Origin: Botryllus schlosseri
Taxonomy: Eukaryota
Assembly: GCA_051294905.1 (NCBI GenBank)
Contig: CM119371.1
Coordinates: forward strand, 6,512,001-6,576,000
Length of the DNA stretch: 64,000 nucleotides
Reading direction: 5' to 3'
Of the stretch, positions 27,353 to 60,660 are shown piece by piece. A program made the position numbers and the translations under genes. The notes below the pieces were generated by a model. The model searched no databases and had not been told where the DNA came from. It saw nothing but the letters and a program-made list of their open reading frames with translations. Each line of letters begins with the position of its first letter. Position 1 is the first letter of the stretch.

Positions 27353-30298
27353 CATAGGCGCCGAGTTACGGGGTGGCGGGGTGGCGCCAGGGTTGTAATG
27401 ACTCGAGTCATGACTCGACTCGAGTCAGACTCGAGTCACGATTTTCGGATGACTCGACTTGACTCGAGTCAATGTGTGTATTGACTCGACTTGGACTCGA
27501 GTCATTGCGCATGACTCGAAGCAAGTCATTGACTCGAGATTCAGACGGCCAAGACCGACATTTCATTGTAATTTCGAAGCCAACACATTATTGGGATTTC
27601 GTTTGTTGGTACTGGTGCTTGAAAATGGGACCAGGAACTGCTAAAAACGAGGAAATTGATAAATTATAAATGCGAACCATTCAATATCACCAAACAGAGT
27701 TAAAAAAGTGGGTTTAGGAAGACTTTAACTGGAAACTGAGCAGTCAACACAATGACTTGGACTCGGACTCGAGTCACAATACCATGACTCGGACTCGATC
27801 CTCTGTTTGCTGACTTGGACTCGGACTTGACTCGGTGGGAATTGAAAATGACTCGACTTGACTCGAGTCAAAAATATAAAAGTAAGATTGACTTGTGACT
27901 CGGAGCCTTGTGACTTGGTTACAACCCTGGGTGGCGCAGCCAATTAGAATAAACGCCCGCCGTCTGCGATTTCAAATCATCAGCGCTGTCAATTAATTAG
28001 CGAGTCCGTGATAGCGCGTAAATGCCAACTATTTAGCATTAACAGATACGCGCGCGAATATTTGAATACGCAACTTCGTAGGCGACGACGAACTAGTGCT
28101 TAAAACGGCCCAATAAGTTTTAATCTGTGATTAGTAATCATGCAGACAATCGAAGCAACCTCGTTTACGACGTCGATTTCGACACGCTGGCGCTGAGAAA
28201 AACCATCTTCTATCTCGACCAGAGGAGCGAATTCACGTTCTCATCTCTTAATTAAATTGTATTTGCGCCCATATTCGTTTACAAAATAATTCTCGTAGTT
28301 CCGTGATGGTCTCTTTAATTGGATGCTTGGAGCGCGAAATAGGACATTGTGTTTTGTATGCCTGCGAATTGAAAGTCATTCCTGCGCAAAGTGCGCATAA
28401 TCATCACTTTAACAAAGCTTTGCCAAGACAATTTTTATCGGAAAATGCCACAATGCAGCTCAAACCTCGTTACAATGAGCAAACAATTGTCGCGATGTCA
28501 GACTAGGAAGTTCCAAGTTGGAACCCCATTGTGCTGTACGCAAGTTGAATAATTGCTGATCAGATGGCGCGCTTTCTCGTTTGCTATCATCTGTAGATTA
28601 CTAATTCTTGTCTGCTTCATACACTCATATTCCCTAGGTGTCACTTGTCAGTGTTTGATTTGTTATTAATACCGGGCATTGTGCAGTGCACGGCGTTGAA
28701 TTACGTTTTCAAATATTGATGCAACACGAGCTTCTCGGTGGCGCAAATTCTGAATTTATGCGATTAGTTTTACCGGGAACCTTCTATGTTCCAATAAACT
28801 TAATTGCTGGACGGACCCTGTCGAGCTAGCGCAATCATATCGCGGATCGAAAAGAGAGAGAGAGTCGAATTCCAAACCTTTGGGATATGTATTTCTATTG
28901 ATAAGGTCGCGGCATGCGCCCATATTGATCTTATACTGTATAACACGTGGATAATTGAAAGCGCACCATTTTTCGATCACATTCGACTGGCTGATCGGAG
29001 CCTACGTAGTCGTAGGCCGTAGGTCCCGGGCTGATATTAACCAGCGCGTTGTCGGCATTAAAACCCCAGGTGCGTAGCCAGGTAGTTTCTCATTTATAAC
29101 TAGAAATCCCGTCCTTTTGATATGCCAATTCACTAATTCGTATTATCGATGCTGCGCACTTCAAATCAGCGAGAATCATTTGTATGCGAAATGGGTCATC
29201 GATATCTCATGTGCGTGCACTATCGGCGGTGGTTTGATTTAGCGCGTCCGCATGTAGGCTCGCTACCGTCCGCAGATACACTTTCTCCAAACAGTAACAA
29301 TCTCTGACTGTAATATTGTTTGTGTTTATGTATCTTTTTGATTAAAACTTATGTCCGCGTCTGAACAAATTGTGCTCGTTGCCATTGCCGAATCTGGGTA
29401 TTCAGGTATGACTAGCACACTCTGTAATTGTAATTATTGCAGGTTTGCGGCATGTCTGCAATTTCGTTATCAGCGCAATCTTGCCGGCCGATTTTACAGT
29501 CCAATAAAATTGATCACTACAAGTATTTCGCACAGCGTAGGCCTACTGAGGCTGATTTCAGCAATCTAACAATCCTTGTTTGATGTACAAATTCGACCTC
29601 ATCTTTAGAAACGTAGATTCGAAACACTATATCGCGATTTGACGACCACTATACGTTCACCTTCTACAAATTAAGGTGCATTATTTGCATTGAGGCGGGA
29701 CGCAAGCTGCGTTTGAAGTATTTTGTGATAAATATTCTCGGAGCGAAAAGTTGAACAGTGTTTAATTTTGTTTGCCTGCTAGTTGGAATTTATTCCAGTG
29801 CCCTTAATATTAATCTAATTATGCTTTGCGAACGTAAATCGGGACATGCAACAATGCAGTCGAAATCGATGTTTTAAATAGCAACCAATTGTCGCGATTC
29901 GAGCTACTCAATACTAAGTAAAATAACCCACTGTGTTGGCGGTAAGGGATAATTCATGATTGACCGCGCGTATTAGTAATCAAAATTCTTGTCTGTCTTT
30001 GGTGTTCTAGAATTGTCGCGCTGCGTTACTGCTCGCTCACTGCTCAGTCCAGCGACGAATGCCGAGTGCGCGGCAATTAATGACATGATTTCGCAATCGT
30101 CGTGATACGAATCTCGCTAATTGGTCGCGGCCCGCGTGACACTAATAATACGACTTGTGGAATTGAAACTGAATATATTAGCGTCATAATGGTCATTTCA
30201 AAAGGACGGGGTTTTGTGTTTCAAAAGGAGGGGTATCGACACCCCCCTGGCTACGGGCCTGCCGCCAACCCATGCAAAAATAAAAGCCGGCGCCTATG
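27353..30298. mobile_element. hAT-like non-autonomous element, CATAGGCGCCG family (second copy)
   Basis: TIRs CATAGGCGCCG / CGGCGCCTATG; TSD GCTGTGCT / GCTGCGCT (1 mismatch). Confidence 0.8.
27388..27929. mobile_element. hAT-like MITE, GACTCG-rich family (complete)
   Basis: TIRs CAGGGTTGTAA / TTACAACCCTG; perfect 8-bp TSD GGTGGCGC; related copies at 35248, 63548 and ~34262. Confidence 0.9.
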
Positions 30299-31202: not shown

Positions 31203-31405
31203 CTTTAGATACATACACCGCAAAAAGAAATTGTCACCATACCAGCAAAGTTCGATACATTTTAATTATATTTTTCAGCCCAGTGTGTCTGTGTATACTG
31301 TAGGCCCCTACAGCTGATTTCAAATTGCAATACCCGAAATAACTTAATTATGTTCACTTGAAAAACAGTGCTACTCTATATTGTACATTTTTATGAATAT
31401 TAATC

Positions 31406-33007
31406 ATGGTGCAGATTGTCTGTCCAAATGTGGAGAAACATGCAGTGAAGATGATGGCAGAATTACATCGCATGAAGCAAGATAGCGATCATTGTGATTT
31501 CACAATTCAAGTTGGAAATGATGTCTACTACACACACAAAAATGTATTGTCGGCTGGATCCGAATATTTCAGAGCGATGTTGAAACATGACACAAAAGAG
31601 AGTCGCGAAGGAAGAGTCGTTTTCAGGGATGTGGATTCTCAGTGCGTGAAAAGTTGCATAGATTTCATATATTCCGGTAAATTTGATGTTCCCGATGAAA
31701 AGATGAATGATCTTCTTTATGTCGCAATCATGATGCAGTTGGAAGATGTGAAGCAGGCGGTATCTGATGCTTTAGCCGGATCAATTACCACAGAGAATTA
31801 CTTTCCCATACGAAACATTGCTGATATGTATGGTCTCGATGATCTCCACTCAAAATGCAGAATCTATTTTCAAGATAATATAATGGATATATCAAACCAA
31901 ATTGAATTTGGAGATACAGAACAAAATGAAATCACCGGTGTCATAAACTCGGAACAGCCAAAATTGAGTGAAGAAGATAAACTATCGTTATCGCTAAAAT
32001 GGGTGGAGAAAAATCCTAAAAAACGGGAAAATTTGCTGGAATGTCTAGAGTTGCTCAAGTTCGACGAAATGTCTCGGGCGTTTTTGCAGAATCTGTTAGA
32101 GACGCATCCCATAATCAGCAATGACTTGATGTTGTACAAGTTAATCAATGGCCATTTTATGAAAGCAACAATAAAGCCGATCGTATCAAAAGGCAGCGGT
32201 GAAATATTAATTCTTTTCAGTTACAAGACGGATGGTATCCAATCCTTTAATCCCACTACTGAGAAAGTAGAGAAGCTCCACGATGAAAAGTTCAAGCATT
32301 TGACAAATTTCAGCGCTATTTCTCTCGGCACTTATCTTTATATTTTATGTGGCACTAAATCTGTTCATCGTCTGAATTTCCGAAACAAAAATTCAAAATG
32401 GGAGAAGATGAAAGATATGATTCGCGACCATGGAGAGATTCCTCGTTCAGAGTGCTTATCGGGATCGATATTCGTCATTGGTGGAAGTTATCCTGAGGAA
32501 AGTAATTCCGTGGAAAGATATGACCCATCTGTAAATCAATGGGTTCAACTGGGGAATAAACCCACAAAAATAGCTTACGCAAGTCTCGTATCATTGAATG
32601 ATTCCATCTATTGTGTCGGAGGCAAACGTGATAAGGTTGTGGTTTCGTCGTTCAGCAGATTCACTCCATACTCATCAGAGTGGGTTGATCTCGAACATAT
32701 GAGATATCCAGCCTATGATTGTGGTGTTGTTGCAGTTGATCAAAAGATATTTGTGATCGGAGAGGGAACAGGGAGAAAGAAAATCAATTACATGGAATGT
32801 TATAATGTTACGTCAGCTCAGTGGACGTCATTGTCATCTCCAAATGTTTGCCGTGCTTGGAACGACGCGTTTCACGTTGGCGAGTGGATTTTTGCAGTAG
32901 AAGAGCTTGGAAATATCGAGAAATATGATATATTGAAAGATAAATGGAGTAAGGTGAAACCAAAAGTAGGTTTCAAAATCTACCGGACTGTAAAAGCGAA
33001 TGCATGA
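31406..33007 (+). CDS. Kelch-like protein (BTB-BACK-Kelch), 533 aa, intronless CDS
   Basis: BTB (CDFTIQVG...HKNVLSAGSEYFRAML), BACK region, and Kelch repeats (IFVIGG...VERYDPSVNQW; IYCVGG; MECYNVTSAQW). Polypyrimidine-TTTCAG acceptor at ~31278. Confidence 0.95.
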   Translation: MVQIVCPNVEKHAVKMMAELHRMKQDSDHCDFTIQVGNDVYYTHKNVLSAGSEYFRAMLKHDTKESREGRVVFRDVDSQCVKSCIDFIYSGKFDVPDEKMNDLLYVAIMMQLEDVKQAVSDALAGSITTENYFPIRNIADMYGLDDLHSKCRIYFQDNIMDISNQIEFGDTEQNEITGVINSEQPKLSEEDKLSLSLKWVEKNPKKRENLLECLELLKFDEMSRAFLQNLLETHPIISNDLMLYKLINGHFMKATIKPIVSKGSGEILILFSYKTDGIQSFNPTTEKVEKLHDEKFKHLTNFSAISLGTYLYILCGTKSVHRLNFRNKNSKWEKMKDMIRDHGEIPRSECLSGSIFVIGGSYPEESNSVERYDPSVNQWVQLGNKPTKIAYASLVSLNDSIYCVGGKRDKVVVSSFSRFTPYSSEWVDLEHMRYPAYDCGVVAVDQKIFVIGEGTGRKKINYMECYNVTSAQWTSLSSPNVCRAWNDAFHVGEWIFAVEELGNIEKYDILKDKWSKVKPKVGFKIYRTVKANA

Positions 33008-34515: not shown

Positions 34516-35584
34516 AGTTTTAACAAAGTTCCGAGTCACAGGTCAATTTGACTTTGATAGTTTTGACTCGAGTCATTTCCAATTCACCACAGAGTAGAGT
34601 CCAAGTCATAGTATTTACTGTTCAGTATCTATAGTTCAAGTCAGGTTGAACTCACCTCTGTGAAACACTTGGGTGATATCGACAGCCTCGGGGATTCGTG
34701 ATGTAATCATTTTTTCTGACATTAAATATGTTTATTCAAATAGATAAAAGACAGTTTCTTGGCCTATTTTTCAATTATAATTGAATTATCGGTCCTGATA
34801 TACGACAAGATAGCGTAATGGTGAAGCCAAAGACCAAAGACTTGAGTAGTAACACTGTTATCCATGACTTCCCTGCTTGGCGCTCATGCATATATGGAAT
34901 CGCATGGAGGGGTGGTGCAAGACTCGGAAAGCCATAAAAAAGGCTATATCTGCACGTTCCTTGTCCAGCGGCTTATGCACATCATGCGCTCATGATATGC
35001 ATATGCGCAGATCGTGTGTATGTGTAGCATGAGTCGGTGTATATGCCGCAAAATACAGCACGGACAAAAATAAGCTACGTCCTTTTCCTTTCCTAGGATT
35101 ACCATATTTTAGAATCCGGCAAGGACGACACTTTTATCAAATCATAAAAGTTAGTTTTGAAAACAACTGATTCTGTTATATTGTCTGGAAATCTCGTTGT
35201 GTTGACTTTAAAAAGTCATATTCCTTCGCTCATCGTACTATATAGATCAGGGTTGTAACCAAGTCACAAGGCTCCGAGTCACAGGTCAATCTCACTTTTG
35301 AACTTTTGACTCGAGTCAAGTCGAGTCATTTTCAATTCACCAACGAGTTAAGTCCGAGTCCAAGTCAACGAGCAGAGGGTCGAGTCCGAGTCATGGTATT
35401 ATGACTCGAGTCCGGGTCCAAGTCATTGTGTTGACTGCTCACTTGCTCAGTTTCCAGTTAAAGTCTTGCTAAACCCACTTTTTACAACTCTATTTGGTGA
35501 TATTGAATGGTTCGCATTTATAATATACCGTACCAATTTTCCTCACTTTTAGCAGTTTCTGGTCGCATTTTCAAGTACCACTAT

Positions 35585-35820
35585 TGTGGTGTATCAGTCC
35601 CTTTTGACCACTAGTGGGTGTTTATACTGATTGCTCCTGATTACCTTCACGTCGGGACTATTCATTTCATTCGTACCAGTTGGGTGTGGCGTCGCTTCTG
35701 TCAGTTGTACCTACGTTAACTCTGTATTATTGCCATGTTGTATTCAGATACACTAGCTTACTTTTATGTTAATAAAAGCCTAGGAACCGATCGTATTGAG
35801 TTCTATCGAAGGGTACAACA
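35585..35820 (+). repeat. 5' LTR
   Basis: TGTGGTG...TACAACA; AATAAA at 35771-35776. Confidence 0.98.
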
Positions 35821-35849
35821 ATTTTATTAACATAAATGGTCATCTCAAC

Positions 35850-38426
35850 ATGGCGTTCTCTCAAGAAAAGTACATACGTGTGCCAGTTTTGGAAGTGATG
35901 CCAAGCTCGGCTGACTCGCAGAAGATATTCAATCATTGGGAGAAGATGTTGGGGAAATTCTTAGTTGCCGCGCAGGCCTCCGCTTCAAACTCAACGGCTC
36001 CCAATCGATCCTCTTCTGACCCTCCAGCTGAAGTGACTATTGACAAATTAGCTATTCTATACGGATATATATCTCCGGATGTGTTCGCTCTTGTAGAGCA
36101 CTTCGCTACGTATGAATCCGCTCTTGAGGCGCTATGCAAGCTCTACAAGAAAAAGAATAACGTGATCTACTCCAGACACCTCTTGGCAACGTCTCGTCAG
36201 GATCAAGGAGAAAGCGTCACGGATTTTTCGCTAAAATTGCTTACTCTCGCTAAAGATTGCATGTTCGCTGCTGTAAATTCCGACGAGCATCAAAAGGAAG
36301 CAGTTCGCGACGCCTTAATTGCTGGCTTACGTTCGCCTAATATTCGTCTTAGATTATTGGAGCACGATGATATGACATTGGACAAAGCGGTTCAGATAGC
36401 CGAATCTCTCGAGCGAGCTCAGCAATTTTCGTCTTCTTACGAGCCCATATCGATGCCCGTCCCTGTCGCCGTGAGTGCTGTGGGATCTGAACAGACGACT
36501 AATAGCGATCAAGTCAAAATAACGCCGGAGGGGACCGGCGAAGTTGCATTAGTCACGAAAGCATACAAGAAGTGCCAATATTGCGGCAGTCAACATTACC
36601 CTCTGCGCAAGGTCTGTCCCGCGAAAAACGCCGATTGCTATAAATGTGGATATAAAGGCCATTTCGGTAAGGTATGCAAAAGTGGCACTCAAAATAGGAA
36701 GATCGCTGCGCCAGCGTATGATTCTGATGAAGCCTCTCATTTGGCTTCTCTAGACGCCGGTGGAACTGGTGCGGTAACGTTTAATTCCGCCGAAGTGGCG
36801 GACCTCGCTTCCCTGTTGATTGGAGTACCGAAATCACTCAGATACTCGGCTATCATCATCAATATAGCAGGATTGACTATAGAGGCGCTGGTCGACTCGG
36901 GGGCCTACGAATGCTTTATGAGACGATCGTTTGCTAATTCGCTTGCACTCCCTCTGCACGGACCGGAATCCACTATTACTCTGGCATCGAAGGACTCCAC
37001 CTCTAAAGTATTGGGGCACGTTACTTCGCCATTCACAATACAGGATCATAAATACAGCGAAACACGTTTCGGAGTCGTAAACAACTTGTGCGCGGATGTG
37101 ATCTTAGGATTGGAGTTCCTGAAAACTCACAAGAACGTCATTTTCAAGTTCAACGGGCCTCGAAGCGACTTGATCATCGGTGATTCTCACTGTTCCGTCG
37201 CTGCCGCTAAGATTACAGAGACGCCAAAGATATTCCACTTCGTTGATAGAAATGTCGACCCCATCGCTGTGAAATCAAGAAATTATTGCACCGACGACGC
37301 CCAATTCATCAAAGAAGAGGTGTCAAGATTACTGCAAGAAGATGTGATAGAAAAGTCCGTCTCTCCGTGGCGGGCTCAGGTTCTGGTGACGAAAGATGAA
37401 CGCCATAAAAAGCGGTTAGTTATCGACTATTCTCGAACTATTAATAGATATACGCCCCTGGACGCGTATCCGCTCCCTAGAATCGAGCATATTGTTAATG
37501 AAGTCGCTAAAGGAACGGTATATAGCACCATCGATCTGAAATCCGCGTATCATCAGGTGCCTCTTTGCCCTTCAGACCGTCCTTTAACAGCTTTCGAAGC
37601 TGACGGTAATTTATACCAGTTTCGTCGATTGCCTTTTGGGATAACAAACGGCGTCGCAGCTTTCCAGCGATTCATAGACAATTTCATCCGAAATCATAAC
37701 CTGCAAGGTACTATTGCTTACCTGGACAATGTTACTATTTATGGCAAAAATAGAAAAGAACACGATAAGAGGTTGGAACGTTTTATGACTTCAGCCAAGG
37801 CTGACGGGCTGACTCTGAATGAAAAGAAATGTGCGTTCTCAGTTGAAAAGTTATCGCTCCTGGGGTACCTTATTTCCCATAACAAAATTCAGCCTGATCC
37901 TTGCCATTTGAAACCTTTGATGGATATGCCCATCCCTAACAATGCAAAAAGTTTAAAGCGCTGCTTGGGTATGTTTGCCTATTATTCGAAATGGATACCT
38001 TCGTTTTCGGAGAAAATGAAACCATTGACTCGAAACATTGAATTTCCGTTGAAAACCGATGGACTCCAGGCTATCAAATCGTTGAAAAATAGCCTTATAG
38101 GTGCTTGCCTAAGTTGTATATATGACGACGAACCTTTCGAGGTTGCCTGTGATGCTTCGGACGTGGCTATCGCGGCCATACTAAGTCAAAGAGGCAGACC
38201 TGTAGCGTTTATGTCGCATACTCTTTCCAAATGCGAGTCAAAATACAATATTGTTGAAAAAGAGGCTCTCTCGCTATTATTGAGGCCATACGAAAATGGG
38301 GATACTTGCTTCACCGCAATAAGTTCCGCCTCGTTACCGATCAAAAAGCATTGTCGTTCATATTCAGCAAAACTCACGCTAGTAAAATCAAAAATGCTAA
38401 GTTGTCGGTGTGGAAACTCGAATTGA
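35850..38426 (+). CDS. Gag-Pol polyprotein, first part (Gag, CCHC knuckle, protease, RT, RNase H start)
   Basis: First ATG at 35850; CYKCGYKGHFGKVC; LVDSGA; IDLKSAYHQ, LPFG, YLDN; CDASD. The natural frame is lost at ~38270. Confidence 0.93.
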   Translation: MAFSQEKYIRVPVLEVMPSSADSQKIFNHWEKMLGKFLVAAQASASNSTAPNRSSSDPPAEVTIDKLAILYGYISPDVFALVEHFATYESALEALCKLYKKKNNVIYSRHLLATSRQDQGESVTDFSLKLLTLAKDCMFAAVNSDEHQKEAVRDALIAGLRSPNIRLRLLEHDDMTLDKAVQIAESLERAQQFSSSYEPISMPVPVAVSAVGSEQTTNSDQVKITPEGTGEVALVTKAYKKCQYCGSQHYPLRKVCPAKNADCYKCGYKGHFGKVCKSGTQNRKIAAPAYDSDEASHLASLDAGGTGAVTFNSAEVADLASLLIGVPKSLRYSAIIINIAGLTIEALVDSGAYECFMRRSFANSLALPLHGPESTITLASKDSTSKVLGHVTSPFTIQDHKYSETRFGVVNNLCADVILGLEFLKTHKNVIFKFNGPRSDLIIGDSHCSVAAAKITETPKIFHFVDRNVDPIAVKSRNYCTDDAQFIKEEVSRLLQEDVIEKSVSPWRAQVLVTKDERHKKRLVIDYSRTINRYTPLDAYPLPRIEHIVNEVAKGTVYSTIDLKSAYHQVPLCPSDRPLTAFEADGNLYQFRRLPFGITNGVAAFQRFIDNFIRNHNLQGTIAYLDNVTIYGKNRKEHDKRLERFMTSAKADGLTLNEKKCAFSVEKLSLLGYLISHNKIQPDPCHLKPLMDMPIPNNAKSLKRCLGMFAYYSKWIPSFSEKMKPLTRNIEFPLKTDGLQAIKSLKNSLIGACLSCIYDDEPFEVACDASDVAIAAILSQRGRPVAFMSHTLSKCESKYNIVEKEALSLLLRPYENGDTCFTAISSASLPIKKHCRSYSAKLTLVKSKMLSCRCGNSN

Positions 38427-39598
38427 GCGCCTTCAAGTATGAAATAATTCATCGCCCGGGTACTGAGAATGTTGTTCCTGATACATTTTCTCGTGTCTGC
38501 TGCTCGTTGCCAAATTCTGGCTTGTCTCTCCATCAGGTGCACGAAGCTCTTGCTCATCCCGGAGTACGACGGTTGAACCATTTTATTAGAGCGAAAAACT
38601 TGCCATTCTCTGTAGATGAAGTCCGAAAGATCTGCGCTAACTGCAGAATATGCTCCGAAATCAAACCGCGATTCTATAAATCCAATGTCCATCACCGTCT
38701 CATTAAATCGACTAGACCGTGGGAGAGAATAAGTATTGATTTCAAAGGCCCTGTTGAAGGACCTCGAAAGTATCTGCTCGTAATTATTGACGAATACAGC
38801 AGATTTCCATTTGCGTATCCATGCCGAGATATGACATCAGCTACCGTTGTTAATTGTCTCACTGATTTGTTTTCCTTGTTCGGTCTGCCCGAATATGTTC
38901 ACAGCGATCGTTCAAACTCGTTCTTATCGAAGGAAGTAACGACGTTTCTTACCCGTAAAGGCATAGCAACGAGCAAAACTACTCCGTACCATCCCACTGG
39001 AAACTCTCAATGTGAGCGTTTGAATCAAACGCTCTGGAGATCAGTAAGAATGCTCTTAGCCTCACGAAAATTGCCTGAAAGTTCATGGGAAGCTGTGTTG
39101 CCTGATGCCCTTCACTCTATCCGTTCGCTTCTGTGTACTACTACTAATTCGTGTCCGCACGACAGATTTTTCAATTTCAGTAGGAGAAGTATGATGGGGG
39201 AATCGGTTCCAGATTGGATACTCCAAGGAGGCTCCGTGTTGCTGAGGAACTTCGCAAGGAGAAGTAAAAGTGATCCGCTCGGAATCGAAGTCGATTTGCT
39301 CGAAGCTAACTCCAAATATGCCTTGATCCGGCATCCATCTGGAGTGGAATCGACCGTCTCAGTCAAGGACCTCGCACCTTATCCGCCTACTACTGAGCCC
39401 TACCCAGTCGATGATGGGGCTGCCGAACCGGACCGTGCAGTGGCCGACGATTCGTTTCTGGTTGAACCTACGGTTGACGTTGGCAACAAACAAGATTCTT
39501 CAGAAACTTTGCAAGAAGTTGTCGCTGATCCTCCGCCCTTGAGAAGATCAACTAGAATCAAACGCGCGCCTGAACGATATGGACAATCCTCTTTATAA
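38273..39598 (+). CDS. Pol, second part (RNase H end and integrase), out of frame by a 2-bp insertion
   Basis: AIIEAIRKW...TDQKAL (RNase H); HEALAHPG...CANCRIC (HHCC); DFKG/HSDRSNSF/NSQCER (DDE core). Confidence 0.9.
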   Translation, partial: AIIEAIRKWGYLLHRNKFRLVTDQKALSFIFSKTHASKIKNAKLSVWKLELSAFKYEIIHRPGTENVVPDTFSRVCCSLPNSGLSLHQVHEALAHPGVRRLNHFIRAKNLPFSVDEVRKICANCRICSEIKPRFYKSNVHHRLIKSTRPWERISIDFKGPVEGPRKYLLVIIDEYSRFPFAYPCRDMTSATVVNCLTDLFSLFGLPEYVHSDRSNSFLSKEVTTFLTRKGIATSKTTPYHPTGNSQCERLNQTLWRSVRMLLASRKLPESSWEAVLPDALHSIRSLLCTTTNSCPHDRFFNFSRRSMMGESVPDWILQGGSVLLRNFARRSKSDPLGIEVDLLEANSKYALIRHPSGVESTVSVKDLAPYPPTTEPYPVDDGAAEPDRAVADDSFLVEPTVDVGNKQDSSETLQEVVADPPPLRRSTRIKRAPERYGQSSL

Positions 39599-39626
39599 TT
39601 ACTTTGCTTTTGTTAGTGGGGGAGAT

Positions 39627-39862
39627 TGTGGTGTATCAGTCCCTTTTGACCACTAGTGGGTGTTTATACTGATTGCTCCTGATTACCTTCACGTCGGGAC
39701 TATTCATTTCATTCGTACCAGTTGGGTGTGGCGTCGCTTCTGTTAGTTGTACCTACGTTAACTCTGTATTATTGCCATGTTGTATTCAGATACACTAGCT
39801 TACTTTTATGTTAATAAAAGCCTAGGAACCGATCGTATTGAGTTCTATCGAAGGGTACAACA
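39627..39862 (+). repeat. 3' LTR
   Basis: Identical to the 5' LTR except CTGTC->CTGTT; preceded by the PPT. Confidence 0.98.
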
Positions 39863-40713
39863 ACTATCATTAGACGAAATTCCAATAGTGTGGTTACTTT
39901 ACTGTTATTCGAAATTTCAATGAAATATCAGTTTCGGCCGTCTGAGTCCCGAGTCATATGACTTGATCATGGAACTGACGAGTAAAGCATACACAACATA
40001 ACAGTAAAACACATCAAGTTTTATTTTAAATCACTGTTGTAGTAAAGTTTCATATAGTGTGGAATGTCATGAATAAACTTGAAATGAACTGAATGTATTC
40101 AATTGTTATATACTTCAGTTTGCTACTACTTGTACTGTATTTGTATATAAGTAGACAAGATTGAGCTTTTTAGCCTGCCTACCCATTTACTGAACTTAAA
40201 ATGACGTCCCACTTCAGTGCACGGAAGTCAAACAGATTGTGTAGCAACACAATGCAATGTGTGACCTCATAATGCAATGTGTAACCTCATAGAGGTCTAT
40301 GACTGTAATGTTATGTAGGCTAACCATACAGTTTGCCTTCGTTCAATCAGAAATTGCCTTGCTTTCCTAGTGATTAACTGCTTCACCGCTTAAATTGGCA
40401 ATTTTTATTTAAAGTATACAACAATATGACTTTATAGCTCCAATATGACCTAACCTGGAAAATATGACTTTATAACTTATACCCCATGGCCATAGGGATG
40501 CGGTTTTTGCTAACTTGATTTTATGACTTACTGATGCATAGAAAAAAATATGACTTTAATGACTTTAAATGGCCCTAATGATAACCCTAAATAATGACTA
40601 TACATGGACCACCTCTGCTAAATTCTGCCATCAGAATACCTAAACCTGTAGGTGTGCAGAACTCACAAGGACACTTGAAAAAGTTACCGAATATTTCTCG
40701 AAGAATGATAAAT

Positions 40714-42342
40714 TTATTTAATCTGCAATTTCACTACAGTAGAGCCAAAAATGCGAAACATTTCATCACCCTCCGAATTCTTGTACCATTTGTCATTCAA
40801 TATATCGTACTTTTCAGTATCATAAGTGTAACTGTGATATTGTTTTAGTATAAAAATCCAGTTGCCAACATGATAAGCATTGATCCAGTTGTGACAACTA
40901 TTCATGGACGAAAGTGAAGTCCATTGAGCCGAAGCCGCGTCGTAGCATTCGACTAGTGCAAGCGGCTGTCCATTTCTCAAACCGCCCATAACAATTATCT
41001 TTTGTTCAACTGTCACAACCCCACTCCCACAAACGGGATAACTCATCGGCTGCAATTCGACCCATTCTGAAGTTAACGGTGTAAATCTGCAGAAGGTCGA
41101 GACTTCACCGTCGTGCTTTCTGCCGCCGATACAATACACTGAATCATTCAACATTACCAGACTAGCATCGCTAATTTTTGACGGTCTGTCGTCTAGTCTG
41201 AGCCATCGATTAATAGAGGGGTTGAACACCTCTACCGCATCTGAAGGCTCCGGGTAGCTACCGCCGATAACAAATATTGATCCCGACGAGGAAACTGCGG
41301 GGGGATACCATCCATGGTTGTGAATCATATTACCCATCTTTTGCCATTTTGATTTTTTATCGTTAAAATACAGTCGATGCACAGATTGATCCTGAGACAG
41401 AGCATAAATGAACGGGTCGAGGTATACAGTAGTGAAAACTTTCAGGTGTTTGAACTTCTCGCCGTGGAACGGCGTTGCTTTGTTAGTTATCGGATCGAAG
41501 GCTCGGATACAGTCGTTGTCGTGATCGAAAACAATGATCGTCTTTTCGTTTAATGCTCTGATGGAATTTTCGTAAGCCTCGATGATGTAACCGTTAATCA
41601 GCTTGTACAGAAAAACATCGTTACTGATCATGGGCTGTGTTTCAAGAAGACGTTTCAAAACTGGTATAGAGATTTCGCTCAACTTGATTATTTCAAGACA
41701 CTTTTGAAAGGTGTTCTTTTTATTCGGATTATTTTCTAGCCACTGCAGCGATATAGTCAACTTTTCTTCTTCGTTCAACTTCAAGACTTTGAGGCGCAAA
41801 AACCCAAGTAGATCTGTTTTTGATATATTCCCAAATTCGGGCTGTTTTGCGATTTCAATGATGTTCTCTTTAAAATATTTTTCGCACTTTGACGAAACTT
41901 TTTTAAGTCCATACATTTCGGCAATATTCCTGGTGGAAAAGTAATTCTCCGCAGATATTGATTCTGCTAAAATATTGGATATGGCGTGTTTTATATCGTC
42001 CAGCTGCATCATGACCGCAACATGAAGGAGGTCTTGAATCTTTTTTCGCGGTATATCGAATTTACCGGAATATACGAAATCAATGCAGCTTTTTACACAC
42101 TCGGAGTCAACATCTTTGAAAACTATTCTTCCTTCGCGACGTTCTTTCGTGTCGTGCTTCAGCATCGCTCTGAAATACTCGGAACCTGCCGACATTATAT
42201 CTTTGTGGGCGTGATACACGTCGTCCTGAACCTCAATTATGAAATCGCAGTGATCGTTGTCTTCTTTCATTCGGTATAACTCCGACAAAATCTTAATCGC
42301 ATGCTTCTCCGCGTCTAAACATACATTCCGCAACATAGCCAT
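40714..42342 (-). CDS. Kelch-like protein (BTB-BACK-Kelch), 542 aa, intronless CDS
   Basis: Close paralog of 31406-33007 (shared SAGSEYFRAMLKHDTKE.REGR.VF.DVDS.CVKSCIDF); Kelch GG/Y/W repeats; TTTTTACAG acceptor at ~42378 upstream of the ATG. Confidence 0.95.
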   Translation of the reverse strand: MAMLRNVCLDAEKHAIKILSELYRMKEDNDHCDFIIEVQDDVYHAHKDIMSAGSEYFRAMLKHDTKERREGRIVFKDVDSECVKSCIDFVYSGKFDIPRKKIQDLLHVAVMMQLDDIKHAISNILAESISAENYFSTRNIAEMYGLKKVSSKCEKYFKENIIEIAKQPEFGNISKTDLLGFLRLKVLKLNEEEKLTISLQWLENNPNKKNTFQKCLEIIKLSEISIPVLKRLLETQPMISNDVFLYKLINGYIIEAYENSIRALNEKTIIVFDHDNDCIRAFDPITNKATPFHGEKFKHLKVFTTVYLDPFIYALSQDQSVHRLYFNDKKSKWQKMGNMIHNHGWYPPAVSSSGSIFVIGGSYPEPSDAVEVFNPSINRWLRLDDRPSKISDASLVMLNDSVYCIGGRKHDGEVSTFCRFTPLTSEWVELQPMSYPVCGSGVVTVEQKIIVMGGLRNGQPLALVECYDAASAQWTSLSSMNSCHNWINAYHVGNWIFILKQYHSYTYDTEKYDILNDKWYKNSEGDEMFRIFGSTVVKLQIK

Positions 42343-44748
42343 ATTAATATCCGGAGTTGAATGAGTAAATAATATTCCTGTAAAAATAAAAACAATTAAA
42401 GTTTATTAACCGATTGGCACCGGCTGCCATTTTCGAAAAATTTTACTTCATTTTTCAAAATCGAAAAATGGTACCTTCCTGGGATTCGAATACTGTAAAC
42501 AAGGTACCGTTCGATTCAAAATGATAACGCGCAGCCGATTGCGCCACTCAAATCGACACTAACGGTGTGTCTGATTACGTATATCAAGATCAAGCCGAGT
42601 AAACGTTGGTTGGAAACAGAAATGCTAAATTGTGGACCGTATGAACCTTAGTATAGGTATTCGATGACGATATAGAGTGTTATGTATTGTATAGGCACAG
42701 TATTCATCTTTCTAGAGAGCCCTGAGTCGACACTCTACGTCTAGCTGGCGATCATTTCTAATCAAAACACCGACCGTTTTAGTCAACTCGCGGCAGGCCG
42801 CCGAGAGAGTGAGTCATGGCGAGTGATGCGCGTATGGTAACTTCGAAGGCTTATAACTGAAACTGTTGTGAACCTAAATCAGTCATTTTCGTATTCTTAG
42901 ACGGAGATTATTATACATTCCTTACCACAATGATATACTGCAAATGCTTATCATTACTGCGACGTAAATTTTATGATGTTATTTTGGTAGCACTTGCGTC
43001 AAATATATACAACATATTGCGGGTAATGCACACCGAGTAGTATTGCAGTTATTACGATGTATACATGACTAATAACTGTTGTCCAATGTAGATATAATCT
43101 TATGGGCATGTACCCTTCACAGAAACAATCTAAGAATGTCTATTACATACAGAATTCAGGACATATCACTTTATGTTATGGATATTCGTCCCTGCGTTTG
43201 ACACTACCGTGGTAGTCTGCAGCAATTCTCTTCGCGATTTTCAGAAGCGGCCTTGGGGTGACTTAGGCATAACTAATGTTGTTTACTTAGGGCTTGTAGG
43301 TGGAGATTGACTAGTTTTATTGAAAGAGACAAACCGCCAATGCTTATCATTACTACCTACAATGTAAGATATATAACGATGTACGACAGCTCTTTGTATA
43401 TCCAGATGTACGCTTTTGCGTAGGTATAATCGCCGAGTAATATTGTGCATATCCCGAATTATACTTGACCCTTAGCCGTTATTTAGAATCATATAGTCAA
43501 CAGCAATCCACAGACAAAATCTATGAAGGTCTATGGCTATTAGAACACGATATATATCACGTTATGTGACAGGTATTCATGTTCATCCATCTGCTTGAAG
43601 CTGGTACAGTAGTCTGCAAGAATTTGATTACCGATTTTCAAATGCAACCTGGAGCGGTGTGGAACTAACTAGTATAGTTGTTTTAGAAAAAAAAATACAG
43701 AAGCTGACAATCCCTATTCATAGCAACAAACTACAGCCGGTTATGATGAATAAAACCAAATGTATACGACAGTGTATATGACGGGTATGAGGAACGCGCG
43801 TCTGCGAAATTATGCTTCGGCGGATATTGTTGCCACTTGTCACGCGACCTATCACATAGCTTTTGAACAGCTTATATGTAACTAATATCAGATATGAAGA
43901 TATGTGTGGACTTGTATGGACACTAGCTTTTCACAGAAAAAAACAACTATGCTCTAAGACGGCTAGAACAAAACATACAGTACATTATGTGAGAGTGGTC
44001 AATGACGCACGCGTTGCCGAAGCAGTGTATTTTGCAACATATTTACCTACGGTCTTTGTTATCCTGTTTCGACGTCTTAGATATAAAATATATCAAATAT
44101 TATGGTATCAATGAACTTGCACAAACAATATCTATCCGCAGAAATAAACGGCAACGAACCTGCACGATTAGAACGGGATATATAGTGGTTCTAATACAGT
44201 ACGTTTCCCTCTAACGGCAATGGGTAAAAATACCCACGCCGGCGCCAAACGGTTAAAGACTCGCTCGATAAAACTACAGTATCTTCATCAAAAATTCAGA
44301 AAAATTTCATGAGAAACACACTATTACAATCAAAGATATTTTTAGTTCCCGTGGATCAGGGGTCGGCAACCTTCAGCATGTAAAGAGCAATTTCAACATA
44401 TTTGGAATCTTGTTAGACCAAGCAGGATTATCAAACACTGTTTCAGTTTCTGCATTCAATTATTTCGAATGATGGTTATTGGTTACCCAGAGCATATATT
44501 GAAAAGCTCCAATTCAAGCGCTATCAAATGATAGGACAATGCTCTCAAGAGTAGGAACAGGCAAAAATTCATCACACCAATTAAATATTGATTAAATCGA
44601 CAGTTAATTGCTGTTCTTACTTATGCTGCATGCGGTGCATACAACCAAACTGCTCTTGCGGTTTCACCGAACTCTCAAAAGGGTGCACTATCTGACTTTT
44701 ATAGTCATGCAGGTAACGTTCACGTATTAAATACTGTAGCGTTAAATG

Positions 44749-45986: not shown

Positions 45987-48401
45987 GTTAAATGACCGAG
46001 GTCCATAAATCCCATCAGAATGATGTCAACACATACACGGTAGTTCTGGACGAATAACTTGAGAAATTATTTTTACAGTTCCTGAAATTGGCATCCCAAG
46101 GCACTTGCTGACTTGCCCCCTGCCTAATAAAGCAGTAACAAAACACAGAAGCAAAATTTGAATTCTGCTGCACAAGCTACTGGTAAAGGTAACACTGCAA
46201 AGTAACCTTGTGGTCCAAAATAATTCCATCTTACTTCTTCACAATCGACAACATTGTCACAAGGTAGGCTATATGCCACACAACACTGGAAGGCTACCTG
46301 TTTCACGCTATTTATCGTAGAAAGAGGCAATTCCCTCCTACCTCGAAACCGGAATGGAATTGGTGGCAATGTCACGCAGGATTTTCTGTTTATTTGCTTA
46401 ATTATTCTATACAGAAAAGCTCTCATCACGCAGGATTTATTTAAAAAAATGAACCGAGATTCCATATAGGCCTCGAAACACACAGGCGTACAATTTACTG
46501 GTACAAGATACTCTCCCGATAACTTCGTTAGTCTGGCAGATTGAAAATTGCGGCCCACGGGGGGGGCATCCCTAAAAGACGGAGAAGCGGAGGCAGCGGA
46601 GACAGCGGAGGCAGCGGAGAATGGACCCTAAAACGCGGAAACAGCGGAGACAGCGGAAAGAGCCAAAAATGCCGATTCCTAAAAGACGGAGATAGCGGAG
46701 ACCGGAGCTTTCGGTCATTGACCTTTATAGACACGCGCGACATAGCGGACGGATACTGGAAGCGGAGTTCGGGACCCCGCGAAATGGACATAGCGGACGG
46801 TTATATAATATAGAAAGCGGAGATCAGGGCGTATCGGAAGATGTTTCGAAGCAGTGGAGAATAACGGAGAAGTCAGCCATGCGAGTTCAAGGCCAATTTG
46901 GCGACTGATTGCCCGTCGATGAGATGACATAGCGGACGGATCCTGAAAGCGGAGTTCGGGGCCCCGCGATATAGACATGGCGGACGGTTATATGATATAG
47001 AAAGCGGAGATCAGGACGTATCGGAAGATGTTGCGAAGCAGTGGAGAATAACGGAGAAGTCAGCCATGCAAGTTCAAGGCCAATTGGGCGACTGATTGCC
47101 CGTCGATGAGATGACATAGCGGGCGGTTATATAATACAAGGAAAGCGGAGTTCGGGTCGTATCGGAAGATGTTTCGAAGCAGTGGAGAATAACGGAGAAG
47201 TCAGCCATGCGAGTTCAAGGCCAATTTGGCGACTGATTGCCCGTCGATGAGATGACATAGCGGACGGATACTGAAAGCGGAGTTCGGGGCCCCGCGAAAT
47301 AGACATAGAGGACGGTTATATAATATAGAAAGCGGAGATCAGGGCGTATCGGAAGATGTTTCGAAGCAGTGGAGAATAACGGAGAAGTCAGCCATGCGAG
47401 TTCAAGGCCAATTTGGCGACTGATTGCCCGTCGATGAGATGACATAGCGGACGGATACTGAAAGCGGAGTTCGGGGCCCCGCGAAAAAGACATAGAGGAC
47501 GGTTATATAATATAGAAAGCGGAGATCAGGGCGTATCGGAAGATGTTTCGAAGCAGTGGAGAATAACGGAGAAGTCAGCCATGCGAGTTCAAGGCCAATT
47601 TGGCGACTGATTGCCCGTCGATGAGATGACATAGCGGACGGATACTGAAAGCGGAGTTCGGGGCGTAGCGAAATATATTTCGAAACAGCAGAGAATAACG
47701 GAGAAGTCAGCCATGCGAGTTTCAGGCCAATTCGGTGATTTGCTTGCCCTATCGATGAGATGACAGCGGACGCGTTTCGTATGACAATTTAACTGATGAT
47801 AGTTGTGGAATATTACTGAACTACTTTCTACTTTACAAAAACCGAATTGCAAATGTAATTAGTTCATCCAGAATGCTGTTCAGGTAGAATTTGAAGTAAT
47901 TGCGAAACATTACCACTTCAGTAAGTACGGGAAATAGCCCAAATCTACTTGATTACCCCGAAAAAGTAGAAATATTCAACATATATAATATCCGAACAAC
48001 GTGATGTGATAAAGCAAAAATAACGTCAGATTCGTATTCAGCGCCCCCAAATTAGGTATAATTGACCCGAAGAAGTCCTGGCGCAAAAATTCTGTAGATC
48101 AGCGTTATTGGTGCTGCGGCGTGCGACGCCATCAAACCAGGAAATTGGCCCGTGAGCACATTCTAGTTTGAGACCTCTGCACTAGTGACTATAATGCGAA
48201 CTCTGTAACAACTTGCTATGAACCCAATATCGGGGCATTTTGCCTGGCCTTAACAATCCACCTTTGCTCGACTCGATCTTCTCCTTATTTGCTAACACAT
48301 GTCACTTCATTAACGAAATATCTTTTACAAATTATATACAGATGTTACCAAAATGAAACGAAGAAAATATATACAGTCATGATAAAAGGTTAAATAAAAG
48401 T

Positions 48402-48671
48402 TCACGGCTGAATTTTAGCAGCTAAGCAGTTTTTGCGGTAGCAAATGAAGTATGTCATCTCATCAGCCTTTTCATCGACTGGGCAGGACTTGGGGAACCA
48501 TCTTCGACATTTCACACACATTATCTGCTGATCTTGGTCTTTACTACCTTTACATAAGCTGCTGTCGCAATTATCCCATTTCGATTTATTCATGACACCA
48601 ATGGCAGATGAGGAATCGGCTAGCTCTGCATATGTAATATCACTTTCTGATATTGCATTCCAATCATCCAT
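48402..48671 (-). pseudogene. C-terminal PHD-finger-like fragment in the centre of foldback 2
   Basis: CDSSLC-x-IMCVKCRRWFPKSC-x-FICYRKNC follows C4HC3 spacing with the His replaced by Pro; the ATG overlaps the repeat arm, implying an internal deletion. Confidence 0.65.
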
Positions 48672-49609
48672 GGCTGACTTCTCCGTTATTCTCCGCTGCT
48701 TCGAAACATCTTCCGATACGCCCCGAATTCCGCTTTCCTTGTATTATATAATCGCCCGCTATGTCATCTCATCGACGGGCAATCAGTCGCCCAATTGGCC
48801 TTGAACTTGCATGACTGAGTTCTCCGTTATTCTCCACTGCTTCGAAACATCTTCCAATACGCCCCGAACTCCGCTTTCCTTGTATTATATAACCGCCCGC
48901 TATGTCATCTCATCGACGGGCAATCAGTCGCCAAATTGGCCTTGAACTCGCATGGCTGACTTCTCCGTTATTCTCCACTGCTTCGAAACATCTTCCGATA
49001 CGCCCTGATCTCCGCTTTCTATAGTATATAACCGTCCGCTACGTCTATTTCGCGGGGCCCCGAACTCCGCTTTCAGTATCCGTCCGCTATGTCATCTCAT
49101 CGACGGGCAATCAGTCGCCCAAATTGGCCTTGAACTTGCATGGCTGACTTCTCCGTTATTCTCCACTGCTTCGAAACATCTTCCGATACGCCCCGAACTC
49201 CGCTTTCCTTGTATGATATAACCGCCCGCTATGTCATCTCATCGACGGGCAATCAGTCGCCCAAATTGGCCTTGAACTCGCATGGCTGACTTCTCCGTTA
49301 TTCTCCACTGCTTCGAAACATCTTCCGATACGCCCTGATCTCCGCTTTCTATATTATATAACCGTCCGCTATGTCTATTTCGCGGGGCCCCGAACTCCGC
49401 TTTCAGTATCCGTCCGCTATGTCATCTCATCGACGGGCAATCAGTCGCCAAATTGGCCTTGAACTCGCATCGCTGACTTCTCCGTTATTCTCCACTGCTT
49501 CGAAACATCTTCCGATACGCCCTGATCTCCGCTTTCTATATTATATAACCGTCCGCTATGTCTATTTCGCGGGGCCCCGAACTCCGCTTTCAGTATCCGT
49601 CCGCTATGT

Positions 49610-50060
49610 TAGGCTTACAATACGTCCTCTTTTAAGAGGATTTGTCCTCTTTTTTGACTTTTTTTAAAGTGTCCTCGGAGGACGCCCTTTTGTCCTCTTT
49701 TTTGAGATTTTGTCCTGTTTTTTGAAAATTTAGGTCAGATTTAGAGCAAATTGCGAGTGATATGCCGCAAATTAGCACAGAAGTGACGGTCCGGCGGATA
49801 TTTCGGAGTGAAAAACGGTGAATTTAGCTCTGAGCGAAAAGATGACCTTTTTTTTTTTTTTTTTAGTCATCCACCTGGCAATGTGGACAAAAAACGTTAT
49901 TTTGAGCTCTGAGTGGAAGTGACGACCTTTTTTTTTCTTAGTCAACTGATCACGGAGTGGGAAAAATTTATCGGTTTTTGAGAATTCTTCTCCGGTTTTG
50001 CAAGCCTGAAATTTCTGAAAAAGTGTCCTTTTTTTACATTTTCAAAATATGGTATGCCTA
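49610..50060. mobile_element. hAT-like (Blackjack-type) MITE inserted in the right arm of foldback 2
   Basis: TAGGCTTACAATA...TATGGTATGCCTA; duplicated GCTATGT flanks; GTCCTCTTTT motifs; related fragment at ~1626-1850. Confidence 0.8.
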
Positions 50061-51119
50061 GCTATGTCATCTCATCGACGGGCAATCAGTCGCCAAATTG
50101 GCCTTGAAATCGCATGGCTGACTTCTCCGTTATTCTCCACTGCTTCGAAACATATTCCGATAGCGGAGCCGCTATGTCTATTTCGCGGGGCCCCGAACTC
50201 CGCTTTCAGTATCCGTCCGCTATGTCATCTCATCGACGGGCAATCAGTCGCCAAATTGGCATTGAACTTGCATGGCTGACTTCTCCGTTATTCTCCACTG
50301 CTTCGAAACATCTTCCGATACGTCCCGATCTCCGCTTTCCTTGTATTATATAACCGCCCGCTATGTCATCTCATCGACGGGCAATCAGTCGCCCAAATTG
50401 GCCTTGAACTCGCATGGCTGACTTCTCCGTTATTCTCCACTGCTTCGAAACATCTTCCGATGCGCCCCGAACTCCGCTTTCCTTGTATTATATAACCGCC
50501 CGCTATGGCATCTCATCGACGGGCAATCAGTCGCCAAATTGGCCTTGAACTCGCATGGCTGACTTCTCCGGTATTCTCCACTGCTTCGAAACATCTTCCG
50601 ATACGCCCTGATCTCCGCTTTCTATATTATATAACCGTCCGCTATGTCCATTTTGCGGGGTCCCGAACTCCGCTTTCAGTATCCGTCCGCTATGTCGCGC
50701 GTGTCTGTAAAGGTTAATGACCGAAAGCTCCGCTCTCCGCTAGTTCCGCTGTCTCCGTCTTTTAGGAATTGGCATTTTTGGCTCTCTCCGCCGTTTCGGT
50801 TGCTTCCGCGTTTTAGGGTCCGTTCTCCGCTGCCTCCGCTGTCTCCGCTGCCTCCGCTTCTCCGTCTTTTAGGGATGCCCCCCACGGGGCGTAAATGACC
50901 AATTTGCTGATCATCCCAGCTCAGCTGTGCTGACAAAATACCACAGCATTATTTATATTTAAATCACAACCCGTAGTAGTACGCAGCAGTAATGCCGTAT
51001 TGTAAACAACTCCCAATGGGTCCCGAAAGCACAGCAAACTGAGGCCCACATTTGGCGCTAGTGATCGCATAACATAACATAACATAACATTGTTGGGTTA
51101 TTATTTTTATCTGAACAAG

Positions 51120-56872: not shown

Positions 56873-57324
56873 TATAGCTGTATTAAGTGGATTGAAGGCA
56901 GAATTTTATGTTTACTTCATCTTATTCTCATACGACCCTAGTTAAAACGGGTATCAATCGCTATTTCGCAATTTTATACTCAAAACTTGGATCTGTCACT
57001 AGCCATTTGCGAACACACCATGTTAGCGTGGGTTGCAGCCAGAATCAAGACCGAAACAGCATTTCGTCCCCTCAAATGGCCGTCTTGGGCACCCATAGGC
57101 TGATCAATAAAACTTCTGACGGGCGAAGTCCCCCAGATCCTCCCCCCCCCATTTTACGACCGGGCTTTTTACAACAACTGGAAGACACGTGTTGATGCGA
57201 TATGGATTCGCTTTGTATTTGCTGTCAAGTCGCGCCAAGCGCGAAAACTTCGCGAACGTAATTTAAAACTATAAGATCTTCGTTGTTATTATTACTTTAT
57301 TGTATGTTATTGATTCGTCTGCTA

Positions 57325-60300: not shown

Positions 60301-60660
60301 CGTTACGGACCTAGTTTGCGCTCTTATTTTGAATAAACTAAGACCCGCTATACTCTGAAATTACTTTTATATTGTAGAACTATTCAATCACTTTGCCGTG
60401 GTATATTGGTTGTAATATTAACAAGTCCGCTCGACTCTCAAATATAACGCTGAATGTATGGTATTTTCATATCAATGGGTATATTCGTATGCCTGAAATG
60501 CGACGTTACGGACCAACTTTGATCACTTATTTTGAATAAACTAAGACCCGCTATACCCTGAAATTACTTTTATATTGTAGAACTATTCAATCACTTTGCT
60601 GTGGTATATTGGTTGTAATATGAGCAAGTCCGCTCGACTCTCAAATATAACGTTGAAAGT
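57325..60660. repeat. 203-bp satellite array (~16.4 units, two interleaved variant types)
   Basis: TATTG(T/C)AGAACTA at 57325, 57528, 57731, 57934, 58137 (period 203). Confidence 0.97.

Follow-up and report, generated by a model that had tools for sequence, protein, structure and literature searches.

The window analysed here, a stretch of DNA of 64 kb, carries on its forward strand a single copy of an LTR retrotransposon of 4,278 bp (4.28 kb), at positions 35585-39862. Its 5' LTR (236 nt, 35585-35820, TGTGG...ACAACA) is a direct repeat of the 3' LTR (236 nt, 39627-39862, TG...CA), with one mismatch between the two, C/T at 35702, and the element is flanked by two identical copies of the 5-bp target-site duplication ACTAT, at 35580-35584 on the left and at 39863-39867 on the right. 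The repeat search had set the raw boundaries at 35583-35821 and 39625-39863, and these were trimmed to LTRs of 236 nt using the 5-bp duplication. The insertion is confirmed by a paralogue of the target repeat that lacks it (63604-63947) and in which the ACTAT stretch occurs once only. Between the LTRs, the ORF list and Pfam (gag-asp_proteas, RVT_1 and RT_RNaseH_2) place gag, with two Cys-His knuckles, protease, reverse transcriptase (RT) and the start of RNase H in a single frame at 35850-38426, and the remaining RNase H and the integrase (ORF list, Pfam) in a different frame at 38258-39598. The frameshift within RNase H is found in the window copy, the relatives having one ORF of about 1200 aa. 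A polypurine tract, AGTGGGGGAGA, can be read at 39615-39625 and ends one base short of the 3' LTR.

The order protease-RT-RNase H-integrase, the TG...CA LTRs, the polypurine tract and the short target-site duplication are those of the Ty3/gypsy elements (Metaviridae), and the closest solved structure for the RT is that of Ty3 (4ol8, E = 1e-45). Pfam recognizes only rve, Integrase_H2C2 and RT_RNaseH in the integrase ORF, with no chromodomain, and PF00385 is present in none of the 120 homologues listed (the best 120 of 757), as the initial annotation had supposed in calling the chromodomain not evident. The element is a young LTR retrotransposon of the Ty3/gypsy type without a chromodomain. Rfam gave no match in the window, and ARAGORN found no tRNA genes in its 64 kb.

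LTR elements need a primer for the minus strand, bound just 3' of U5. At this place the window element has a single base, A at 35821, between the LTR-terminal CA and a sequence, TTTTATTAACATAAA (35822-35836), that is the exact reverse complement of TTTATGTTAATAAAA (35763-35777) in the 5' LTR. The initial annotation had pointed to this 15-nt perfect self-complement including an AATAAA, which can be read directly from the sequence (15 of 15 nt, with AATAAA at 35771-35776), and the LTR end defined by the target-site duplication (35820) places the 3' arm, from 35822, exactly where it had put it, one base past the LTR. The stem stops at both ends, at the opposed T residues 35762 and 35837 on one side and at 35778 (G) opposite 35821 (A) on the other. 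Inspection also bears out the geometry that had been described: in the 5' arm, which is the putative self-primer, the 3' end points towards U5, and only the 5' LTR can take part in the stem, since the partner arm lies outside the LTR; the 3' LTR has its copy of the 5' arm at 39805-39819 with no partner arm beyond. Right after the 5' arm comes a second, weaker stem (GCCT...GGGT) and then a G+T-rich stretch to the LTR end (35778-35814), while upstream an initiator-like TCAGAT (35744-35749, with its A at 35746) may be one candidate transcription start.

The length of this complement is unusual for its position. Among 20,000 LTRs simulated with a first-order Markov model, complements anchored 0-2 nt after the LTR never exceeded 12 nt, a length found twice, against the 15 nt observed, and just 4 further perfect hairpins (stem of at least 13, loop of 25-80) are present in the 64-kb window. 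When the RNA of 35755-35860 (106 nt) is folded, the minimum-energy structure (-22.6 kcal/mol, z = -2.1) includes the 15-bp stem.

A protein search with the protease-RT-RNase H region as the query returned 757 proteins at E <=0.001, and many of the best 120 of these correspond to ORFs about 1200 aa long, on contigs about 4 kb in size; those among the best 120 that have a named source are from Styela, Ciona, several Lepidoptera, Mytilus and Trichinella. An alignment of 20 homologues was then used for the retrieval of 80 loci on metagenome contigs, whose RT-RNase H is 40-56% identical to that of the window element. A scan of viral contigs found no relative, and a polyA tail, which would point to an RNA origin, is missing from the ends of all the short contigs. 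Several of the 4-kb contigs are circular permutations arising from collapsed LTRs.

Pairs of direct repeats 2.5-8 kb apart are present at 28 of the 80 loci, and 18 of these were examined after removal of duplicates and of contigs with an end inside an LTR. A perfect complement of the LTR, 10-19 nt long and beginning 0-4 nt past the repeat end, was found at 15 of the 18, with 35-56 nt between the end of the LTR arm and the end of the LTR. At one locus, L014, a mis-set LTR boundary had concealed the stem, which was recovered by the scan described below, and at L022 and L075 the detected repeats are not the LTR ends of this type of element. An LTR-independent scan, set to report perfect stems (11 nt or longer, loop of 25-80 nt), detected one of 11-19 nt just upstream of gag at 39 of the 80 loci (one of them, L023, doubtful). 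Among the other loci, 4 have a decayed stem with 1-3 mismatches or an indel in the same place, and 1 has the 3' arm alone, on the first bases of its contig. For 25 loci the expected region lies outside the contig. The region is covered and the stem absent at 11 loci, and in 7 of these the N-terminal match to gag is also absent, so that their 5' part is missing or too diverged and they are probably truncated. L024 and L029, where the start of gag is close to the start of the contig and no complement exists anywhere in the contig, were counted as indeterminate. L023 has a 79-nt loop, no TAAA and an odd spacing to RT; it was excluded from the motif counts, which cover 27 families, and retained in the covariation alignment A2 (see below), where it stands one column out of register and is the source of several unpaired cells.

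The families share a common layout around the stem. Taking the inner end of the 5' arm as position 0, positions -14 to -7 read TTT(W)AGTT, with A, G and T at -10, -9 and -8 in 21/27, 25/27 and 21/27 families, and positions -3 to 0 read TAAA (22/27, 27/27, 26/27 and 26/27 families). The bases right after the arm are R, C and C, the two Cs being present in 26/27 and 25/27 families. Since the arm sequence is itself partly conserved (AGT and TAAA), pairing is not the only constraint on it, and the stem could owe its existence mainly to the polyA-type hexamer. A canonical AATAAA or ATTAAA stands at the inner end of the arm in 15 of the 27 families; the other 12 keep the stem and lack the canonical hexamer. 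An additional canonical hexamer occurs in the loop in only 3/27 families and within the 114 nt upstream in 2/27.

The second stem recurs in the relatives as RCCU...AGGY. Anchored at the first base of the loop, it has a mean length of 4.35 bp across 26 families, compared with 2.82 +/- 0.21 in shuffled loops, none of 2000 shuffles being as high, and in the loops whose anchored stem reaches at least 3 bp (29 of 31) its closing pairs are G-U (13), A-U (8), G-C (7) and U-G (1). It is followed by the G+T-rich stretch, the LTR-terminal CA, one spacer base and the 3' arm, in that order, and CAA stands directly before the 3' arm in 24/27 families. The stems measure 11-19 nt and the loops 24-70 nt, and the two shortest stems (11 nt, in L032 and L044) have the conserved AG of the initiator-like TTWAGTT as their first bases. 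Upstream, TCAG[AT] occurs 26-38 nt before the inner end of the arm in 5/27 families, with looser CAGA/CAGC variants in about 5 further families, as judged by eye.

The initial annotation had proposed looking for the complementarity, with compensatory changes, in related Gypsy families, and both are present. The 5' arm differs from family to family, reading ...GTTAATAAAA in the window, CAAGTTGATTAAA in L003, ATTTCTAGTCGAATAAA in L009 and TGATTCTAAGCTGTTAAAA in L015, and each 3' arm is nevertheless complementary to its own LTR. Across the 13 inner positions of 32 distinct arm pairs, 403 of 416 cells are Watson-Crick pairs, with 2 G-U and 11 mismatched cells making up the remainder; perfect runs average 12.4 when arms are paired within families and 3.4 when they are paired across families. 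In alignment A2 (MAFFT, 28 representatives, with a stated helix of 13 pairs), 96.2% of the cells are paired compared with 69.4% in shuffles, 12 of the 13 pairs have changed on both sides, and double changes occur in 84 cells compared with 20.8 in shuffles. None of 500 shuffles matched the observed values on any of five measures, and sliding the partner by 1-3 columns leaves only 27-51% of the cells paired.

Some individual loci suggest a replication-like inheritance of the two arms. Relative to its family, L008 has one change in both LTR arms together with a compensating change in the site. The site of L072 agrees with the arm in the 3' LTR and not with that in the 5' LTR, which indicates that the 5' LTR arm mutated after insertion. 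The separate insertions L016 and L025 have in common a mismatch at stem position 14, and in L014 both LTR arms have changed and the site has not. Thus, the shared mismatch and the unmatched change indicate that copying does not enforce pairing along the whole stem.

The arm at the primer-binding position has a differing sequence in at least 27 families, and three arm families exist within one assembly. None of the arms in the families examined starts with TGG. In the relatives, the ATG of gag occupies the place of TGGTCATCTC in the window (35837), and the start contexts of L044 and L061 are similar to the window's own ...TCTCAAC ATG. Measured from the end of the arm, the first ATG comes at -3 to 30 nt, overlapping the arm in several families, and with gag's ATG so close behind the 3' arm there is no room for a tRNA site. 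ARAGORN reported only one tRNA-like match across the 39 loci. The claim that a tRNA primer-binding site is missing from the expected place therefore appears to hold, on the evidence of these arms and start codons, and a match of a host tRNA to the site seems very unlikely because the arms are family-specific, never start with TGG and have gag's ATG so near. Judged by sequence, the place of the primer-binding site appears to be filled across the clade by a family-specific sequence that matches the element's own LTR, without a common match to a host RNA.

We propose that these elements use Tf1-like self-primed reverse transcription, in an animal Gypsy clade that lacks the chromodomain, a reading to which we assign a probability of roughly 70%. 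The window element belongs to a widespread clade of compact, single-ORF elements that appear to prime with their own RNA and not with a tRNA. What the sequences show is a complement with a fixed place, which is conserved and covaries, and too little space for a tRNA site; from this we infer that the duplex forms in RNA, is cleaved and primes, and where transcription starts. In the genomic RNA, the segment 35763-35777, near the start of R, would fold back over a loop of about 44 nt made of the rest of R and U5, and would pair with the 15 nt at 35822-35836, which a single base separates from U5. Between ...UAAA and RCC (after 35777), where the duplex has its inner end, the element's RNase H would make a cut, as in Tf1, and the freed 3'-OH would be extended across the spacer and U5 to the cut, producing a minus-strand strong-stop DNA of about 45 nt. 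This DNA would then transfer to the same sequence in R at the RNA's 3' terminus. With the hexamer as its signal, the polyA site would fall 10-30 nt past the cut, and the short effective R would hold the second stem.

Finally, plus-strand strong-stop synthesis would copy the RNA primer, and the site would be rewritten from the LTR arm in each cycle. Such rewriting would keep the two arms Watson-Crick paired and drifting together between families, and would explain why the long stem is almost purely Watson-Crick in contrast to the G-U pairs of the small neighbouring stem. It would also explain a change that arose in the LTR arm during a cycle and is present in both LTRs and not in the site, as in L014.

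In the strict Tf1 model, the 5' end of the RNA would coincide with the outer end of the pairing, giving a start in 35763-35767 or no more than a few bases away, and the 11-nt stems that begin at the conserved AG fit such a start. On the other hand, a start at the upstream TCAGAT, which some families have 13-28 nt before the arm, would place the arm inside the RNA rather than at its 5' end, unlike in Tf1. In the reads of run X24 over 35450-36050, the depth on the LTR is 12 or less and there are no pile-ups of starts or ends. In the same interval, the contigs of runs X4 and X17 break at branch points of the graph and so do not reveal where an RNA ends, and run X22 has 0 reads.

The primer arm ends in what is likely to be the real polyA signal of the element, located in R, given the hexamer, the G+T-rich stretch that follows it and the lack of other signals. 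The same order of AATAAA and GT-rich sequence is described for LTRs of animal Metaviridae, and an AATAAA unusually near the LTR's 3' terminus for the self-priming Sushi group, in Benachenhou 2013 (PMC3601003). Because the arm ends in the LTR's only polyA-type hexamer, the stem probably also hides this signal at the 5' end of the RNA, while the 3' copy of the hexamer stays exposed because the partner arm lies outside the LTR. Such occlusion would be a natural by-product of the stem, but it cannot account for everything, in view of the one-base spacing, the missing primer site and the 12/27 families without a canonical hexamer. It is tempting to speculate, as a tentative extension, that one RNA segment has two jobs throughout the clade, acting as the primer of the minus strand and, through its last six bases, as the polyA signal, so that pairing would silence the promoter-proximal signal and the unpaired 3' copy would be active. 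The primer might then be cut from inside the leader, with transcription starting at an initiator some 15-30 nt upstream. An internal primer of this kind, if true, would make self-priming independent of the 5' end of the RNA.

The most serious alternative to self-priming, which we nonetheless consider unlikely, is that the stem is purely regulatory, hiding the polyA signal of R at the 5' end and perhaps gating gag translation or packaging, with another primer in use. The 5' arm does end in TAAA in 22/27 families, and in a canonical AATAAA/ATTAAA in 15/27, this hexamer is usually the sole one near the LTR end, and the G+T-rich stretch comes next, as expected downstream of a polyA site (PMC3601003). 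Moreover, the location of the partner arm outside the LTR makes the stem specific to the 5' end, and gag's ATG adjoins or overlaps it. However, occlusion requires neither a spacing of exactly one base after the LTR-terminal CA, seen in 24/27 families, nor nearly pure Watson-Crick pairing (2 G-U in 416 cells), when the small neighbouring stem uses G-U freely. A stem with only this role would also leave the element without any primer site, and 12/27 families keep it without a canonical hexamer.

The other explanations fare worse. Priming by a host tRNA, a tRNA fragment or another host RNA within 35822-35849, for instance at TGGTCATCTC (35837), with the LTR arm masking or mimicking it, seems highly improbable to us. 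There is a TGG at 35837, and the arms share a loose pattern that a conserved host RNA could in principle impose; yet most positions of the arms vary from one family to the next, each arm fitting its own LTR in every case, three arm families sit side by side in one assembly, and the relatives have gag's ATG in place of TGGTCATCTC and no arm that begins with TGG. We give equally little credence to the idea that the hexamer is a TATA box, with transcription starting about 25-30 nt downstream, in the loop, so that the 5' arm would be present only in U3 at the 3' end of the RNA and would engage in a long-range pairing (cyclisation or a dimer contact). Both AATAAAAG and ATTAAAG resemble TATA variants, and a 162-nt contig of run X17 starts at 35792, with 35639-35785 uncovered in that run, at a depth of about 4 and with the RNA nature of the run a guess, but patchy contigs of such low depth cannot show a start. 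With this arrangement, R would shrink to about 0-15 nt if the same hexamer directs polyadenylation, and no mechanism would provide a usable 3'-OH. That the inverted repeat arose by chance and has no function would be in keeping with an A+T-rich sequence and with a fold z of only -2.1 for the 106-nt region; it is contradicted by the simulation (maximum 12 nt), by the stems at 39/80 loci and by the covariation, and its probability is negligible.

To our knowledge, self-priming has been demonstrated experimentally only for fission-yeast elements, in the case of Tf1. The first 11 bases of Tf1 pair with the primer-binding site and RNase H cuts between bases 11 and 12 (PMC7175516), with further RNA structure needed for priming (PMC7175516; Lin and Levin 1998, cited in PMC4600332). 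Tf2 of Schizosaccharomyces pombe and Tj1 of S. japonicus are likewise counted as self-primed Ty3/gypsy elements (PMC5341516, PMC4600332), the mechanism being proposed for them and for other fungal and vertebrate elements of the Tf1/sushi group (PMC4600332, PMC6934838). Like Tf1, Tf2 and Tj1 as these sources describe them, the elements studied here have, after U5, a site complementary to their own LTR-derived RNA, with the 3' end of the primer facing U5 and, in the relatives, a single gag-pol ORF. The second stem, beside the duplex, may be a counterpart of the U5-IR of Tf1, and is short here (4.35 bp, against 2.82 bp in shuffles). Unlike Tf1, they lack a chromodomain, their stem is 11-19 nt long instead of 11, and the primer arm ends in a polyA-type hexamer. 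The hosts also differ from the yeasts of Tf1, Tf2 and Tj1, the named relatives among the best 120 of 757 matches being from animals (tunicates, Lepidoptera, a mussel and a nematode). The chromodomain at the C-terminus of the integrase that characterizes the Tf1/sushi (chromovirus) clade is absent, which sets the present elements apart from that clade in this feature.

Self-priming has also been predicted in silico for the Tcn1 clade of chromoviruses and for the TAR lineage of plant Ty1/copia elements, such as Houba and Osr-1 (Neumann et al. 2019, PMC6317226), and was considered and then rejected for Skipper and SM-Tcn1 (PMC5006619, PMC2864245). Those two predicted lineages resemble the present one in having no tRNA site and a complement of their own LTR at the primer-binding position, and differ in superfamily or clade and in hosts; in the accessible part of that study (PMC6317226) we found no description of an embedded polyA hexamer or of a one-base spacer for them. 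Similarly, the fungal GalEa copia elements have a Conserved Hairpin Site at the primer-binding position and no tRNA site (Donnart et al. 2017, PMC5445492). In GalEa, however, the arms of 9 nt are both internal, with a fixed A/A mismatch, and no complement of the LTR is reported (PMC5445492). A conserved hairpin at the primer-binding position in place of a tRNA site is thus what the two have in common.

In size and architecture (about 4-5 kb, short LTRs and one gag-pol ORF), the clade resembles the compact Gypsy elements of the Mag lineage and the Cigr-1 type, and Cigr-1 itself is about 4.2 kb long. One of the best 120 of the 757 matches is a Ciona protein, 55% identical over 76% of the query, and two reports place the Cigr-1 clade in Ciona, molluscs and annelids (PMC6238403, PMC8556966). 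This size, the architecture and the Ciona protein make a Cigr-1-like identity only a lead. Unlike the present elements, mosquito Mag elements have tRNA-Leu or tRNA-Ser sites (PMC3286476). A literature search whose reach excluded most subscription papers found no report of self-priming in chromodomain-less animal Gypsy elements (Cigr-1, CsRn1 or Mag type). Self-priming is of a known kind, and what appears to be new is its signature in a chromodomain-less animal Gypsy clade. If this is true, independence from a tRNA primer arose or spread beyond the Tf1/sushi group, and pipelines in which a tRNA primer-binding site counts towards the annotation score would under-report such elements or score them wrongly. 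We could also speculate that, with no host tRNA needed, movement between distant hosts might be easier.

Because the primer overlaps a polyA-type hexamer, these elements would lend themselves to testing how the two ends are distinguished when the polyA signal of an LTR element lies in R. HIV-1, which uses a tRNA primer, has AAUAAA in R at both ends of its RNA, and a hairpin helps decide which of them is used. The elements described here are similar in that the hexamer lies in R and a structure is linked to which end would be used. The HIV-1 hairpin, in contrast, lies wholly in R and is present at both ends, whereas here one arm is outside the LTR and the stem can form at the 5' end only.

Among the related loci from metagenome contigs, L016 (4083-4167) and L025 (4088-4171) represent separate insertions of one family that have in common a mismatch at position 14 of the proposed self-primer stem, counted from the inner end of its arms, while their 13 inner pairs are perfect and the LTR arms are unchanged in both. 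The shared mismatch, taken with the intact inner 13 pairs, hints that rewriting from the primer is limited to the inner part of the stem; to judge from these sequences, it might reach only the inner 11-13 nt.

The final base of the 3' arm, followed by TG, forms an out-of-frame ATG. Read by eye, this ATG starts a short upstream reading frame (35836-35898) that runs across the position, 35850, at which gag begins; several relatives use the ATG at the end of this arm as the start of gag itself. As assembled, pol lies in two frames owing to a frameshift inside the RNase H region (approximately 38258-38426), even though the LTRs of this copy differ at just one of 236 positions; the relatives have a single ORF of around 1200 aa. 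The frameshift may come from an assembly error. Within the coding region of three related loci, downstream of the reverse transcriptase match, we also observed an inverted repeat of 29 nt whose arms match perfectly around a loop of 48 nt (L030 1360-1465, L077 868-973 and L080 864-969).

The element is inserted in a very high-copy dispersed repeat, to which both of its flanks (35300-35584 and 39863-40160) belong, and the depth summed over contigs is hundreds of times higher on the repeat flank than on the element in sequencing runs X4 and X17. Further copies of the repeat lie at 27610-27873 on the reverse strand and at 63604-63947 on the forward strand, the latter being uninterrupted and used as the empty site. 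On a larger scale, the element is flanked by two oppositely oriented, uninterrupted BTB-BACK-Kelch ORFs, one of 536 aa (31397-33007, forward) and one of 562 aa (40714-42402, reverse).

Elsewhere in the window, two 194-bp tandem repeat arrays of approximately 10 copies each (15738-17604 and 18722-20638) are oppositely oriented around a 1.1-kb spacer containing an ORF of 257 aa, for which a Pfam search gave no match. This arrangement resembles a large foldback-type element, with the two arrays as its inverted termini. Two more arrays, with mixed periods of 141 and 187 bp, are likewise opposite to one another (46739-47772 and 48669-50648). An assembly gap of 100 N occupies 5065-5164, and a 203-bp satellite of 16.5 copies with 94% matches extends over 57323-60671.
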